Positions 3,045 to 10,649 of a stretch of DNA of 16,565 nt are shown here, piece by piece; positions within the stretch are counted from its first letter, which is position 1, and every line of letters starts with the position of its first letter. The notes beneath the pieces were generated by a model, which was not told the origin of the DNA, made no database searches, and saw only the letters and a program-made list of their open reading frames with translations. The stretch is from the IMG/VR virus record IMGVR_UViG_2667527959_000010, positions 1 through 16,565 of that record; one strand, given 5' to 3'. The stretch is from a virus. Its lineage: Duplodnaviria > Heunggongvirae > Uroviricota > Caudoviricetes. The position numbers and the translations under genes were made by a program.

Positions 3045-3551
3045 TTGAGTATTTTCAACCAACACGCACACCATGAACGTCCGTATATCGTCATAGTTGA
3101 TATTGATGGAACAATATCAGAGGCAACTGAAGACAGACTGCATTTGCTTCCGCCACCAGGTAAAGGTGCATTAACAAAGGACTGGAACGAGTTTAATCTC
3201 GCCTGTGACACTGATACTCCCATAACTCCAGTTATTGATATTGTGCGCCAGTTATATAACGTTTACACGGTCTGGTTTGTAACCGGGCGCTGTGAGATCG
3301 CAAGGGATAAAACATGAGCCTGGCTGCGAAAGTACGTAACAAACGGGGATGAGCCTTTGCTATCTATGCGTCCTGCCACCGATGACAGAAATGACGGTCC
3401 AGCAAAGATTGATCTCCTTAAGAAAATTGGTCTAAGCAAAATTGCGTTCGCGCTGGAAGATAAGATTGAAGTGGCGCGTGTTTTCAGGCGTCACGGCGTG
3501 CTTACGTTAATGGTCAGGGAGTATGAAAACGCGCTTCTTCATCAGCAATAA
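3045..3551 (+). pseudogene. HAD-superfamily phosphatase (polynucleotide 3'-phosphatase/Pnkp-like domain) interrupted by a single in-frame TGA at 3315-3317
   Basis: ORFs 3045-3317 and 3357-3551 are in the same frame, separated only by one TGA and 13 sense codons. The joined product has HAD motif I IVIVDIDGT, motif II-like WFVTGR, and a C-terminal K/DD region resembling the T4 Pnkp phosphatase domain as recalled. TTG start with strong SD GAGGAGG (3034-3040). Confidence 0.6.
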
Positions 3552-3817: not shown

Positions 3818-6800
3818 CTATATTTTTCCGCCTACGCCTTTAAACTTCTCAATAAACGAGACGATTTTCTGGAAAACTGCCTGTTTTTTCGTTTTATATT
3901 GCGGATTCAACGGACTAAGTTTTGGTAATGTTTCGTTTAATTCTGTGCCATTTTCGGTGGCGTATTCGCGTTTTAAAGACGTGCGAATATAGCGTTTTGC
4001 TGCATCTTCATTAAGATTTTCTTCTTTTATCAATGCTTCTGCTTCACGTTGCTGTTCGCGTTGAGCAAACGTAAAGAATGCGTCAATGATGCTGGCTTTG
4101 TCCGGTAAATCATCCAGGTTCGTTTGCTGAATAAAATCGACCACCAGGCCCTCTTTAGCACGGTTCCCTAGGCTTGAACGAATTAAGCGTTTGACCTCTT
4201 CGATCATTTCGCCCTTGCCTTTATTTTGTCTGTTGTGTTCGAAAATCAGTCCAAGGATATAATCCAGGTTTATTTCCTGAGACTTCAGCAAATCGACCTC
4301 AAAAACTACGTCATCCCAGTCAGTGGTTGATTTCTCTTTTTTCTCAGCTTCTTTCTCACGGCGCTGCCAGTCGCGAATATCGTTATAGGCAGAACGATAA
4401 TCCTGAATCTTGCGATCAGCAGGGAGACGAATTGTTTGCAATTCAGCGAGCTTTTCATCATCCACATAATGTTCTGCTTTGAATTTTTCTACTGCAACAG
4501 GATCGCTAAGATCGATTTGTTGCAGGGCTTTCAGCGTGGCAAATTCATCATAGTTTTGCAGGATGTTCTCGGTACGCAGGTATTCACCAAACAGTTTAAC
4601 GAAGTCTTTCTTCTCTTTTTCACTTTCAATACTGGTAGGGTCAGGGAACCGTTGTTCCAGTTCTGAAACTACTGTCATGAAGCCGCGTTTAGCTTCACCA
4701 GTGGCAGCATCAGTAAAGCCTTCCATATACTCTGCATAACTCTTTTCTAAAACCACATTTTTGGTATTTTTGTCACCAAACAGCGTTATGGCATCAATAG
4801 TTGAGCGTTCCAGATCCCGGAAAGTGACGATATTACCGAAGGTTTTAGTTGCATCATAAATACGGTTGGTGCGGGAAAATGCCTGCATCAAGCCGTGAAA
4901 ACGCAGGTTTTTATCGACGAATAGCGTGTTCAATATTGGAGCATCGAAGCCAGTTAAAAACATCCCCACGACAATTAACAGATCGATATCCTGATTTTTA
5001 ACCCGCTGGGCTAAATCACGATAGTAGTTCTGAAAACCGTTACTGTCGGTGCTGAAGTTAGTTTTAAAATAGCTGTTATACTCACGAATTGCAGCATCAA
5101 GAAACTCTTTAGCACTGCTGTCCATTGCGCTGGTATCAAAAGTTTCATCGGAAATTTCACCAATGGCATTTTGTTCTTCATTGGCAGCAAAGGAGAAGAT
5201 TGTCGCAATATGCAGCGGTTTATAGGTGGCCGATTTATTAGCTGCTTCCTCTTGTAACCGTTTAAACGTCGCGTAATAGGCTTTTGCAGCATCCACGCTG
5301 CTCACTGCCAACATAGCATTAAAACCTTTTGAGCCAGGGAAGGTACGGTGGGTTTTCTGGCGGAAATTATTCAGAATATATTGCGTGATTTCCTGAATAC
5401 GCATGGGATGAAGAAACGCCTGCTGATTTTCAGCCGCACTCAGTTTTTTCTCGTCAGTTTCTGTCTCTAAAGACTTAAACTGTGGCCGCACATCGTTGTA
5501 GTCCACCTTGAATTTGAGCACTTTTTCGTCACGAATCGCATCGGTAATTACATACGAATGCAATTCACGACCAAATACGCTGGCGGTTGTTTCTGAGCCT
5601 AAGGCGTTTTCCGGGAAAATAGGGGTGCCGGTAAAACCAAACTGATAATAGCGTTTGAATTTCTTCTTCAGGTTTTTCTGCGCTTCTCCAAACTGGCTGC
5701 GGTGGCATTCATCAAATATAAACACCACTTGCTGATTATATACAGGCAGGTCGCTTTCTGCTTTCATCAGGTTATTGAGTTTCTGAATAGTAGTGACGAT
5801 AATTTTGTTATCGTCCTTATCCAGATTTCGTTTAAGGCCTGCGGTATTTTCCGAGCCGTTGACGCTGTCTGGCGAAAAACGCTGATATTCCTTCATGGTC
5901 TGGTAATCGAGGTCTTTCCTGTCGACCACGAAGAAGACTTTATCAATAAAGTCCAGCTCTGTTGCCAGACGCGCGGCTTTAAAGCTGGTGAGGGTTTTAC
6001 CAGAACCGGTAGTGTGCCAGATATACCCACCGCTTTCCGGTTTTGACCAGTTCTTCGCTGTAAAGGAGCTCTTAATTTTCCACAGAATGCGCTCGGTGGC
6101 AGCAATCTGGTACGGTCGCATCACCAGTAGCGTCTGACTGCTGTCAAAAACGCTGTAGTTCACCAGAACATTAAGCAGAGTATGTTTCTGGAAAAAGGTA
6201 GCGGTAAAATCTTTGAGGTCTTTAATCAGCGTGTTGTCTGATTTCGCCCAGTTCATGGTGAAGTCAAAACTGTTTTTATCGCGCTTTGTTGTGTTGGCAA
6301 AATAACGGGTATCGGTGCCGTTAGAAATGACAAACAGTTGCAGATACTTAAACAGGGAATTTTCGCTGTTAAAACTCTCTTTACTGTAACGATGTATCTG
6401 GTTGAAAGCCTCACGAATCGCCACGCCGCGCTTTTTCAGTTCGATTTGTACCAGTGGTAAGCCATTAACCAGGATCGTGACGTCATAACGGTTAGCATGA
6501 GAACCCGTCTGTTCAAACTGCTGGATAATCTGCACCTTATTGCGCATGAGATTCTTTTTATCTATCAAATAGATGTTCTCAAGTCGCTCGTCATCAAAAA
6601 TAAAGTCGCAAATATAGTCGATATGGATTTTACGGGTCTTATCCAGAATGCCATCGCTCGGGTTGTCCAGATACTGCTCCGTGAAACGCCGCCACTCGCT
6701 GTCATTAAACACCACACCATTGAGGCTCTGAAGCTGTTCCCGAACATTGGACAGCATAGCCGACTGAGATTTTACGGATATAAATTCATAGCCCTGATTC

Positions 6801-6934
6801 CGCAGGTCCTGAATCAGTTCACGTTCCAGGTCCGATTCGCTCTGGTAGCTGTCGCCTGTTTGCTCAGCTTTGATGTACTTATCAAGGACGATAAAGTTAT
6901 TGGATTCAGCAATGGTGTGTGTTTGATGAGTCAT
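3818..6934 (-). CDS. hsdR: Type I restriction enzyme R subunit (HsdR), type IC-like
   Basis: 1038 aa. Walker A TGSGKT, DEAH-box FDECHR, and an N-terminal PD-(D/E)xK-like nuclease motif (D...IELKK). Length matches EcoR124I HsdR as recalled. SD AAGGA upstream of the ATG at 6934. Confidence 0.95.
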
Positions 6935-7055
6935 AGCGCATCCTTTGTGCCGCCTGGCAAGGGCCGGAAGGGCGTTAAGAGTGACTTCCGGCGCGTAAAA
7001 AATAGTCTATATACAGACCGGGTGTTAAGGTGGCCCGGTCGGTAGCAATGGTCAA

Positions 7056-8312
7056 TTAATTACTGACAGTTTCAGGTGTTGGGAAACTGAACAGTAAATC
7101 ACGATAGTACTCGTATTGTTTCTGGCGCAACTCGATTTCACGCGGAAGACCTTCGGTGATGGAGTTGGTCAGGGTGTCGAATTTATCGAGCAGAGCAGAT
7201 ATTCGCTCTTGTTTCTGTTTATCAGGCAATGGCACTGGTAATGTTTTTATAATATCTGCATTCAAGTTACTGACCGACCCGCTATTGATTTTACTTTCCC
7301 AATAATTTTTCACCTTTTTTGATGAAAGATAGTGATACAGATAATCAGCATTTAATTTTTCACCAAAATTGCTGATTGATGCCCATCCATCATGGATAGC
7401 TCCGGTTATCCTTAAAATATATGGTCTGCCAAAGCTCATAGAGTTAGAAATGACGAAATCACCGGGGTTCAAGATTCGCGATTTTTGGGCACCCTCTGCA
7501 GTTATTTTTTGTAAGGTTTTGTCAATGTATTTAGAGCCGGGTATAGTATCTCCGATTTTAATCCATGGGATACCATTTCCTTGTTCAGTAAGATAATTAA
7601 CAATTGGTCTGGGGGATGCCCCTCGTTGTATTTTGGCTACTTCTCCCAATGCCTTCCACTCAACCTCACCCTCATCAAAACTCAGCAATTGGTCGCGATA
7701 GTAGTTGTACTGTTTTTTACGCATGTTAAGCTCAGCGGTAAGCTCAGCGGTAAGTGCAGTAAATTTATCCAGAATCCGAACGATTTCAGACTGGATGGCA
7801 AGGGATTTTTCCGGATTATCCGGGCAAGGGATTGGGATGAGTAGTTTTGACATCAATGCATTTGAGCTTAGGTTCGGTTGTGCTCCGCCCCCGGCGAGGA
7901 TATAAATAGTCTCTGTATTTAACAATAAAAAATGGTATAAATAATTATTGTTTAGAATATTTTCTTTGGGTATGAATTTCCCAACCCGTTGGTTAAGATA
8001 ACATTTTGTTCCTTTTTTATAAATTCCTACCTTTCCTGTAGTGGCACCTGACATTGCAATCAATATATTTCCCATAGATACCTCAAAGGAGGATAAATCT
8101 TCCTTGTAATCATTTAGTGAAAAGTATTTCACCTCATCTAAGTCAACATTAAATCCATCTATATTTGTGATTCTGACTATCGGTAACCCAGTTTCTTTAA
8201 ATAAGCTGCTTTTAAATGCAAATCCATTTTTAAAATCACAAACATCCTTCAAGGGTTTCCACTCAACCTCAACCCCATCCAGCAATTTTTCCAGATAACT
8301 TAACTCGCTCAT
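7056..8312 (-). CDS. hsdS: Type I restriction-modification specificity subunit (HsdS), type IC-like
   Basis: 418 aa with two variable target-recognition regions separated by the conserved central region ...[33 protein letters not shown], and a C-terminal conserved repeat ...[36 protein letters not shown], as in the EcoR124I/EcoDXXI family. Confidence 0.95.
7730..7753 (-). repeat. Tandem 12-bp repeat (2 copies) encoding TAEL-TAEL in the HsdS central conserved region
   Basis: GCTCAGCGGTAA x2 on the plus strand, which is ACCGCTGAGCTT x2 in the coding sense. A degenerate partial third unit follows. Confidence 0.8.
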
Positions 8313-9871
8313 TTTTGCACCTCGCAGCCTTCAATTTCAGCCACAATTGCATCAATATCTTTACGCAACTGGTCGATTTTGCTGACCGTGGTTTTCAGCT
8401 CAGCATTCAGCTCACCGATATCGATAATTTCGCGGTTATCTTTCGCTTCCACATAGCTGCTCACCGACAGGTTATAGTCATTCGCGACAACGGCTTCAAA
8501 CGCGACAGATTTTGCCAGATGAGCAACATCTTCCTTGCTGGCAAATACCTGCATAATTTTTTCTATATGGGCATCGGTCAGAATGTTGTTGTTAGTCTCT
8601 TTTTTGAACAGTTCGCTGGCATCAATAAACTGAACTTTGGTATCCGTTTTATGTTTAGACAGCACCAGAATATTTACGGCAATGGTGGTGCCAAAGAACA
8701 GGTTCGGTGCGAGTGAAATCACGGTTTCGACATAGTTATTGTCGACCAGATACTGACGGATTTTCTGCTCCGCGCCGCCACGGTAAAAAATACCCGGGAA
8801 GCAGACAATCGCGGCGCGACCTTTGGCCGAAAGATAGTTCAGCGCATGTAGTACAAACGCAAAGTCAGCTTTGGATTTGGGGGCCAGAACGCCAGCCGGG
8901 GCAAAACGTTCATCGTTAATCAGCGTCGGGTCATCGCTGCCAATCCATTTCACCGAATACGGTGGGTTAGATACGATGGCGTCAAACGGTTTTTCATCTC
9001 TGAAGTGCGGCTCAGTCAGCGTATTGCCCAGCTTGATATCAAACTTGTCGTAGTTGATATTGTGCAAAAACATGTTCATACGCGCCAGGTTATAGGTCGT
9101 ATGGTTGATTTCCTGACCGAAAAAGCCTTCTTCGATGATATGGTTATCAAACTGTTTTTTCGCCTGCAACAACAGTGAGCCGGAACCCGCTGCCGGGTCG
9201 TAGATTTTGTTAACGCTGGTCTGCCCGTGCATAGCCAGTTGTGCAATCAGCTTGGAGACGTGCTGCGGTGTAAAGAACTCACCGCCTGACTTACCGGCAT
9301 TTGCCGCATAGTTAGAAATCAGGAACTCATAGGCATCACCGAACAGGTCAATCTGATGTTCGTTGAAGTCACCAAGTTTTAACCCTTCAACCCCTTTCAG
9401 AACCGCAGCCAGGCGGGCATTTTTATCTTTAACGGTGTTACCCAGGCGGTTACTGGTGGTATCGAAATCAGCAAACAAACCTTTGATGTCAGCTTCTGAA
9501 GGATAACCGTAAGCAGAACTTTCGATAGCAACGAAGATGCTGTTTAAATCTGCATTCAGTCTGTCATTAGTATTTGCTTTCGCAGCTACGTTGCAGAAAA
9601 GCTGACTGGGGTAGATGAAGTAGCCTTTAGTTTTGATGGCATCGTCTTTAATGTCATCAGTAATTACGCTGTCATCCAGTTTCGCATAACAGATACTGTC
9701 ATCACCGGCTTCAATATAGCTGGAAAAATTTTCGCTGATAAAACGGTAGAAAAGTGCGCCCAGAACGTATTGCTTAAAATCCCATCCATCGACCGAACCC
9801 CTGACATCGTTAGCAATTTGCCAGATTTGACGATGAAGCTCTGCACGTTGTTGAATACTTGTCATTTTCAT
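8309..9871 (-). CDS. hsdM: Type I restriction-modification N6-adenine DNA methyltransferase subunit (HsdM)
   Basis: 520 aa. AdoMet-binding motif [10 protein letters not shown] and catalytic motif NPPY ([10 protein letters not shown]). Its stop overlaps the hsdS start by 4 bp. N-terminus [13 protein letters not shown] matches my recollection of EcoR124I HsdM. Confidence 0.95.
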
Positions 9872-10010
9872 CCACTTATTTCAGGCTTATGTAATTGGCG
9901 GTGATTCTACAGCAACTTGGATGCTTTAGCAGTTCGGACATTAGGCTACGAATGACCTGCCTAGAGGTTTGTTAAGCCGCAAAGTGCTGGTGCTTTATGC
10001 CTGTGAAGTT

Positions 10011-10040
10011 TATAATTGTGTACACATAACGAGTACACGA
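10011..10040 (+). promoter_or_regulatory. phd-doc promoter -10 (TATAAT) and Phd/Doc operator palindromes
   Basis: TATAAT at 10011-10016 is followed by the perfect palindrome GTGTACAC (10018-10025) and a second near-copy GAGTACAC (10031-10038), just upstream of SD GAGGTG and the phd ATG. Consistent with the autoregulated phd-doc operator described for P1. Confidence 0.6.
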
Positions 10041-10047
10041 GGTGTTT

Positions 10048-10269
10048 ATGCAATCCATTAACTTCCGTACCGCGCGTGGCAACCTTTCTGAAGTGCTCAA
10101 CAATGTTGAAGCCGGGGAAGAGGTTGAAATCACCCGCAGAGGCCGTGAGCCAGCAGTAATTGTCAGCAAGGCTACTTTCGAAGCCTACAAAAAAGCGGCG
10201 CTGGATGCTGAATTTGCATCCCTGTTTGACACCCTGGACTCCACCAACAAGGAACTGGTTAACCGATAA
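10048..10269 (+). CDS. phd: Phd antitoxin (prevent host death)
   Basis: 73 aa, [41 protein letters not shown]..., matching P1 Phd as recalled. SD GAGGTG 4 nt upstream. The ORF track's 10042 GTG start adds two residues; ATG 10048 is preferred. Confidence 0.95.
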
Positions 10270-10649
10270 TGAGGCATATATCACCGGAAGAACTTATTGC
10301 GCTTCATGATGCGAATATAAACCGCTACGGCGGCCTGCCGGGCATGTCAGATCCGGGTAGGGCAGAGGCCATTATCGGGAGAGTTCAGGCCAGAGTTGCC
10401 TACGAAGAGATCACCGACCTTTTCGAAGTCTCCGCCACCTACCTGGTGGCTACAGCGAGAGGGCATATATTCAATGATGCCAATAAGCGTACCGCGCTAA
10501 ACAGTGCGCTGTTATTTCTACGCCGTAACGGGGTGCAGGTATTTGATTCACCTGAACTGGCAGACCTTACCGTAGGGGCTGCGACCGGAGAGATATCTGT
10601 ATCTTCTGTCGCCGACACGTTACGTAGATTGTATGGTTCTGCGGAGTAG
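10269..10649 (+). CDS. doc: Doc toxin (death on curing), Fic-family kinase
   Basis: 126 aa with Fic motif [11 protein letters not shown]. Start overlaps the phd stop (TAATG). Matches P1 Doc as recalled. Confidence 0.95.

Follow-up and report, generated by a model that had tools for sequence, protein, structure and literature searches.

The TAEL repeat in the type IC hsdS gene of a P1-like phage-plasmid: a very probable spacer ruler open to whole-unit gain and loss

The specificity gene hsdS of a restriction-modification (R-M) system, found on a 16,565-nt stretch of viral DNA (hereafter the window), contains two directly adjacent copies of a 12-nt unit, which raises the question of whether this repeat acts as a ruler for the DNA target that can be altered by the gain or loss of whole units. 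According to Tandem Repeats Finder, the perfect tract occupies positions 7727–7754 on the minus strand (28 nt, period 12, 2.3 copies of ACCGCTGAGCTT, 100% matches, score 56) and is the top-scoring tandem repeat anywhere in the window. On the minus strand, GAT AAA TTT ACT GCA CTT is followed by two copies of ACC GCT GAG CTT and then by AAC ATG CGT, which is translated as D-K-F-T-A-L / T-A-E-L / T-A-E-L / N-M-R. The number of full units in the window's hsdS is exactly two; they lie in frame at 7751–7728 and encode residues T188–L195 of HsdS. A degenerate 9-nt unit, ACT GCA CTT (7760–7752, minus strand; T185-A186-L187, TAL), abuts the full units on their 5′ side, and homologs have either TAL or TEL at this position. 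Two tandem 12-bp TAEL copies within the conserved central part of HsdS had been proposed in an initial annotation, and both Tandem Repeats Finder and the translation confirm them. The coordinates given there, 7730–7753, fall inside the 28-nt tract and denote the same repeat, although they are 2 nt off the codon register.

The gene itself (7056–8312, minus strand; 418 aa) is intact, as judged from the open reading frame, Pfam, and a 100% identical RefSeq protein (WP_054626026.1). Two Pfam Methylase_S matches (E=1e-43) are found, one per recognition domain, and the layout of the protein is that of a type IC subunit: a short N-terminal conserved segment, the first target-recognition domain, a central helix, the second target-recognition domain, and a C-terminal helix. 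The N-terminal recognition domain (approximately residues 20–157; 7842–8255, minus strand) resembles neither that of EcoR124I nor that of a sister plasmid, L018, whereas the C-terminal one (approximately residues 214–362; 7227–7673, minus strand) lies in a segment that is close to that of the L018 allele. An AlphaFold2 model of HsdS (42 homologs in the input, mean pLDDT 85.8) contains two long helices, spanning residues 167–209 and 365–407, the first of which is centred on TAEL-TAEL. The former corresponds to the central conserved helix D1 (7686–7814, minus strand), with the repeat in mid-helix; the latter, on the basis of model and sequence, corresponds to the C-terminal conserved helix D2 (7092–7220, minus strand), its predicted coiled-coil partner. 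D1 and D2 form an antiparallel coiled coil that sets the distance between the two recognition domains (PMC3874165). In the window's protein, the D1 stretch from DKF to RKKQY comprises 13 aa and the matching D2 stretch from DKF to RQKQY comprises 17 aa, so that the coiled-coil partners are unequal in length: with three units D1 would reach 17 aa, the length of D2, and with two it is 4 aa shorter. Three repeats have been remarked upon as the apparent "optimum" in alignments (PMC3874165), with which a length match of D1 and D2 at three units would agree. The assignment of the gene as hsdS, and of the tract to its central conserved region, is borne out by the Methylase_S matches, by alignment with EcoR124I, and by the modelled helix 167–209.

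The neighbouring subunit genes are arranged in the order M-S-R on the minus strand. Intact hsdM (8309–9871, 520 aa; Pfam N6_Mtase and HsdM_N) overlaps the start of hsdS by 4 nt, and intact hsdR (3818–6934, 1038 aa; Pfam HSDR_N, SWI2_SNF2, T1R_D3-like, and EcoR124_C) is separated from hsdS by a gap of 121 nt. HsdM matches EcoR124 HsdM (7bst_D) with 1154 bits over residues 1–520, and HsdR matches EcoR124 HsdR (2w00_A) with 2283 bits over residues 1–1038. In type IC operons, hsdM and hsdS are co-transcribed and hsdR is expressed from its own promoter. A promoter-like site is present in the hsdS–hsdR gap (7028–6999, minus strand), such sites being no commoner there than in shuffled sequences. Assignment to a type I family depends on sequence, on complementation, and on antibody cross-reaction. 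Tandem repeats of four amino acids (TAEL, LEAT, SEAL, or TSEL) constitute a hallmark of type IC HsdS proteins, two or three repeats corresponding to spacers of 6–7 bp (PMC10030836), and this hallmark is present here as the two TAEL copies at residues 188–195. By sequence, the system is classified as a complete and intact type IC hsdM-hsdS-hsdR operon of the EcoR124 family whose two recognition domains form a different pair.

The relationship to EcoR124I/II, the type IC prototype encoded by plasmid R124, is close. HsdM and HsdR are near-identical to those of the window; the EcoR124I HsdS of PDB 7BST (404 aa) aligns end to end with the window's HsdS, and the two agree completely or almost completely in the conserved regions at the N terminus, in the centre, and at the C terminus, residues ~158–213 of the window's protein being identical to 7bst_A. 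The 12-nt unit, ACCGCTGAGCTT, is the same in EcoR124, EcoR124I likewise has two units, and the gene order is likewise M-S-R. Over one unit and its downstream flank, the DNA of the window is moreover identical to a primer used for repeat deletion in EcoR124 (accgctgagcttaacatgcg; PMC10644984). Two differences set the systems apart. Both target-recognition domains of EcoR124I differ from those of the window, and the half-sites of the window's enzyme should therefore not be GAA and RTCG. In addition, EcoR124 resides on R124 and the window's system on a P1-like phage-plasmid, for whose exact allele no three-unit partner was found.

This description of the carrier follows from its gene content: a C1 repressor, terminase genes, an Lpa activator, Phd/Doc, and a PmgS-like protein are all encoded nearby, hsdS is 100% identical between the window and a 105-kb plasmid of Escherichia coli AW1.7, and by these genes the carrier belongs with the P1-like phage-plasmids of E. 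coli. In P1, a type III system is found at another location. The operon (3818–9871) is bounded by a phosphatase/polynucleotide-kinase-like gene (3045–3551, plus strand) on one side and by phd/doc (9961–10649) on the other; in the identical AW1.7 plasmid, RefSeq treats the former as a pseudogene, interrupted by an internal stop. An Rfam scan of the window returned no RNA family, and a literature search yielded no publication that deals with type I systems in P1-like phage-plasmids or names these protein accessions.

The TAEL-type element has been known since 1987–1989. EcoR124I, with two repeats, recognizes GAA N6 RTCG, and EcoR124II, with three, recognizes GAA N7 RTCG; with one extra TAEL the recognition domains are displaced by 0.34 nm and by 36 degrees, and the change in repeat number came about by unequal crossing-over (PMC3874165). 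The statement in the initial annotation that a change from two to three copies lengthens the spacer of this pair by 1 bp is correct according to the review of Loenen et al. (PMC3874165). EcoDXXI and EcoprrI have three repeats, and hybrids of EcoR124I and EcoDXXI with exchanged domains and altered repeat number changed their target as predicted (PMC3874165). By published description, these two enzymes share family and repeat module with the window's system but have three units and N7 spacers, as opposed to the two units found here. More recently, a 2023 study converted EcoR124II into EcoR124I by deletion of one unit (PMC10644984). In the NgoAV system of Neisseria gonorrhoeae, natural strains carry 0–3 LEAT repeats, and PacBio methylomes assign an N6 spacer to one repeat and an N7 spacer to two, so that natural population variation tracking methylome spacers has already been shown for that system (PMC6789123). 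The central tetra-amino-acid repeats of NgoAV, varying across a population, display the behaviour predicted for the window's tract, although NgoAV differs in its LEAT repeat, its chromosomal location, and an extra poly-G frameshift switch. Atack et al. (2020) proposed that changes in repeat length within hsdS genes modify methyltransferase specificity, and discussed repeat tracts located beside TAEL as possible modulators of the spacer (PMC7383803). The simple-sequence-repeat hsdS genes of that study resemble the present case in the proposed effect of length on specificity; they differ in having short units that act mostly as ON/OFF switches by frameshift, whereas the window's tract has a 12-nt unit, is always in frame, and would change geometry rather than expression.

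Taken together with these precedents, the tract is very probably the TAEL module of a type IC specificity subunit, that is, a spacer ruler altered by whole-unit gain or loss. Two units in the middle of D1 would, through the antiparallel coiled coil of D1 and D2, fix the distance and twist between the recognition domains, and the number of units would thereby measure out the non-specific gap of a bipartite DNA target. Given that the units abut and have identical nucleotides, exactly 12 bp would be gained or lost through unequal crossing-over or slippage during replication, with the reading frame kept. Each unit would move the recognition domains by about one base-pair step (Nx to Nx+1 or Nx−1), and methylation and restriction would shift their target together. 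With two copies only, such changes are expected to be rare rather than to amount to high-frequency phase variation, and the switching rate is probably low. The present comparisons provide the anatomy, the family membership, the mid-helix position in the model, and a natural 12-bp polymorphism that includes intact sister-plasmid operons; the relation of unit number to spacer length is adopted from the literature. Since its two-unit state is the same as that of EcoR124I, we infer that the window's enzyme has EcoR124I-like spacing, N6 if the half-sites are delimited alike. As its recognition domains are not those of EcoR124I, the written spacer could lie anywhere from N5 to N7 according to the definition of the half-sites. 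A unit change in this plasmid would presumably be viable.

How the unit number behaves was examined for the window's own allele and for its relatives. Full-gene matches occur in four complete plasmid records, two of which are assemblies of AW1.7; all are of equal length and have two units. A protein identical to that of the window (P0001) is encoded on 21 contigs and one differing by two residues (P0002) on 91, again with two units throughout. No near-identical protein of other length was returned in the homolog search, and no length variant exists among the approximately 116 occurrences of the allele (4 plasmid records and 112 contigs). Synthetic one-, three-, and four-unit versions of the window's allele and of P0002 were absent from a collection of 15 billion proteins, a weak test given that the EcoR124II control was likewise absent. 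The two-unit state in this plasmid appears to be stable.

A different picture emerges from sister P1-like plasmids. L018, a plasmid of strain ETEC6335, shows synteny with the window; its hsdM, hsdS, and hsdR genes are intact, and its hsdS has three nucleotide-identical units. Its HsdS shares 97.8% identity with the window's in the segment that follows the repeat and includes the C-terminal recognition domain, and 43% in the segment that precedes the repeat, conserved ends included. When the L018 allele served as the query, three plasmid records matched at 1209 nt (three units) and three at 1197 nt. The three-unit form is carried by ETEC6335 and by the hosts of MK256965 and AP027786, the two-unit form by Res13-Lact-PEB14-36, Res13-Lact-EB12-05, and EA13. 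In the rest of hsdS (1197 nt), L050, one of the shorter records and a two-unit form, has 0 mismatches to L018. Both R-M operons are intact and lie at the window's locus on P1-like plasmids. By sequence comparison, L018 and L050 represent a natural pair of the EcoR124I/II type within the window's plasmid family, in which the change is very recent. While the two plasmids differ by ~1.7% overall, a block of ~4 kb (~5500–9500), which comprises hsdM, hsdS, and the 5′ half of hsdR, is identical apart from the 12-nt unit, and the identity of this block amid such divergence suggests that phage-plasmids have recently exchanged the R-M cassette by recombination. Alignment of the window with L018 and L050 shows 96–97% identity on both sides of a break across 7838–8258, with break-points at conserved hsdS regions, one N-terminal and one central. 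From its boundaries, this break is read as a clean swap of a recognition domain, the classical second route of specificity change.

Similar differences are seen outside the phage-plasmids. Among the best 120 protein homologs, three pairs are 100% identical in the regions flanking the repeat and one unit apart. One of them, L014 (two units) and L016 (three units), does not stem from E. coli and has intact hsdM genes and a single SNP in hsdS. The members of another, P0060 (two units) and P0070 (one unit), are encoded on E. coli chromosomes and have the same frameshift early in hsdM, at its 5′ end; with HsdS and HsdR intact, this system may be inactive, judging from the frameshift. At L004–L009, this early-codon frameshift (~4440–4470) removes the normal hsdM start, and gene callers predict either no gene or a 389-aa product. 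A whole series of lengths was found in the leuX tRNA-Leu island of E. coli (hsdS at L003 5494–6729, L010 5001–6212, L011 5099–5983, L012 4988–5959, L013 5099–5971, and L002 5536–6843), where a single hsdS allele occurs with two, three, four, and five units. The operon is intact in the three-unit form of strain 1303, one of the two three-unit loci examined; in the second, IS elements lie between hsdM and a truncated hsdS. Truncation of hsdS by IS3 and loss of hsdM characterize the four- and two-unit forms, IS2 splits hsdM in the five-unit form, and an allele with another C-terminal domain has eight identical units in an IS-damaged operon. At the loci other than strain 1303, hsdM is thus either split or lost through IS2/IS3, or hsdS is cut short by IS1/IS3. 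The five-, four-, and two-unit forms show 0 substitutions between them over 4620 flanking nt, and the two three-unit loci are 1–2 substitutions away from these forms. The lack of any substitution over 4620 nt among unit-number variants indicates, at the level of sequence, that units are gained and lost far faster than point substitutions accumulate at leuX. These series and pairs, together with L018 and L050, provide natural variation in unit number between otherwise identical alleles and thereby lend support to the earlier description of the tract as a recombination or slippage hotspot. The related expectation of two-versus-three-copy variation in related isolates holds for sister plasmids and other lineages, but not for the exact allele of the window, in which the count is two throughout.

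Across the family, both states are common. In an evenly spread sample of 60 of the ~1366 E. coli records, units were counted from alignment spans, as BLAST identity bands are too blurred by sequence divergence: 29 genes have two units and 25–26 have three (~51% and ~45% of the type IC hsdS genes sampled), one has a single unit, one has five, and three were unscorable. When one genome per species was scanned for runs of at least four exact TAEL units, 30 loci (L020–L049) emerged, some 25 of which lie in the same central region of HsdS, in an EIVRILDxFTEL-(TAEL)n context, and come from many phyla. Their arrays comprise 4–10 units that are mostly nucleotide-identical, and several belong to a full-length hsdS reading frame that adjoins an uninterrupted hsdM and sometimes hsdR as well. 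Examples include Suttonella (L038, nine units), Oxalobacter (L043, at least ten), L027 (seven), and L045 (six). About one third of the long-array reading frames stop 30–45 aa past the repeat, which corresponds to an HsdS of half size or to a frameshift. A restriction of long arrays to inactivated operons under relaxed selection fits the leuX island, but as a general rule it is contradicted by the arrays of 4–10 units in other phyla that adjoin an uninterrupted hsdM and sometimes hsdR.

Several other readings of the tract have to be weighed against that of a ruler altered by unit gain and loss. That the repeat is a chance or compositional feature with no bearing on protein function could be argued from its short length of 28 nt, and from nothing else. 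The longest perfect tandem repeat in 100 shuffled versions of the window measured 20 nt, none reaching 28 nt; the repeat is in frame; among the 42 homologs, residues L191, E194, and L195 are invariant and the remaining TAEL residues at least 90% conserved; and EcoR124 has the identical unit. On these four grounds the chance reading is refuted and retains next to no probability. A more serious objection holds that D1 has a fixed length here and that the repeat does not function as a switch: copy-number changes would be rare and usually harmful accidents, since a new specificity would attack the unmodified host, and variation elsewhere would mostly reflect decayed loci. Every instance of the window's allele does have two units, the leuX forms with two, four, five, and eight units occur in operons with IS-split or deleted hsdM or truncated hsdS, and P0060 and P0070 both carry the frameshift at the 5′ end of hsdM. 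Against this stand the intact-operon pairs that are one unit apart (L018/L050 and L014/L016), the EcoR124I/II and NgoAV precedents with measured changes in specificity (PMC3874165, PMC6789123), and the roughly equal frequency of two and three units across E. coli type IC genes, which together make a purely fixed length rather unlikely. Part of the observed variation may nevertheless represent neutral decay rather than switching of specificity, because both the leuX series (2/3/4/5/8 units) and the P0060/P0070 change occur in IS- or frameshift-damaged operons.

At the opposite extreme, the tract could be a contingency locus that switches at high frequency within clonal populations and gives rise to mixed methylomes. 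Nucleotide-identical units, the chromosomal lineage with several unit numbers and no flanking substitutions, the arrays of 4–10 identical units in other taxa, and the discussion of TAEL-adjacent tracts as possible spacer modulators by Atack et al. (PMC7383803) would all be compatible with such a locus. Two 12-nt units are a short substrate for it, however, and 0 length variants were found in the ~116 occurrences of the window's allele; frequent switching is thus improbable, and more so than a fixed length. A tentative proposal, which we consider doubtful, is that the TAEL tract is a hypermutable variable-number repeat that diversifies the restriction specificity of P1-like phage-plasmids on epidemiological time-scales. 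It is suggested by L018 and L050, as these differ in unit number inside a freshly exchanged, otherwise identical 4-kb block. If it were true, the arrays of 4–10 units would imply type I spacers longer than any characterized so far, or an unknown way in which the coiled coil absorbs the extra turns. Engineered enzymes with four or more repeats reportedly have relaxed or promiscuous spacing.

The mechanism itself is textbook knowledge rather than new, and is correctly restated in the initial annotation. What is new is an uncharacterized combination of recognition domains within the EcoR124 family, located on a P1-like phage-plasmid; the window as such matters little. As by-products, the comparisons indicate that mutation is far faster in the tract than in the DNA around it, and that TAEL arrays can reach 4–10 units. 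The two-unit and three-unit sister plasmids offer a pair that is directly testable by methylome sequencing. For the plasmid, the prediction is a methylation motif that is EcoR124I-like in its spacing and that a gain of 12 bp would shift by 1 bp, and a motif shifted in this way would affect which phage and plasmid DNA the host accepts.
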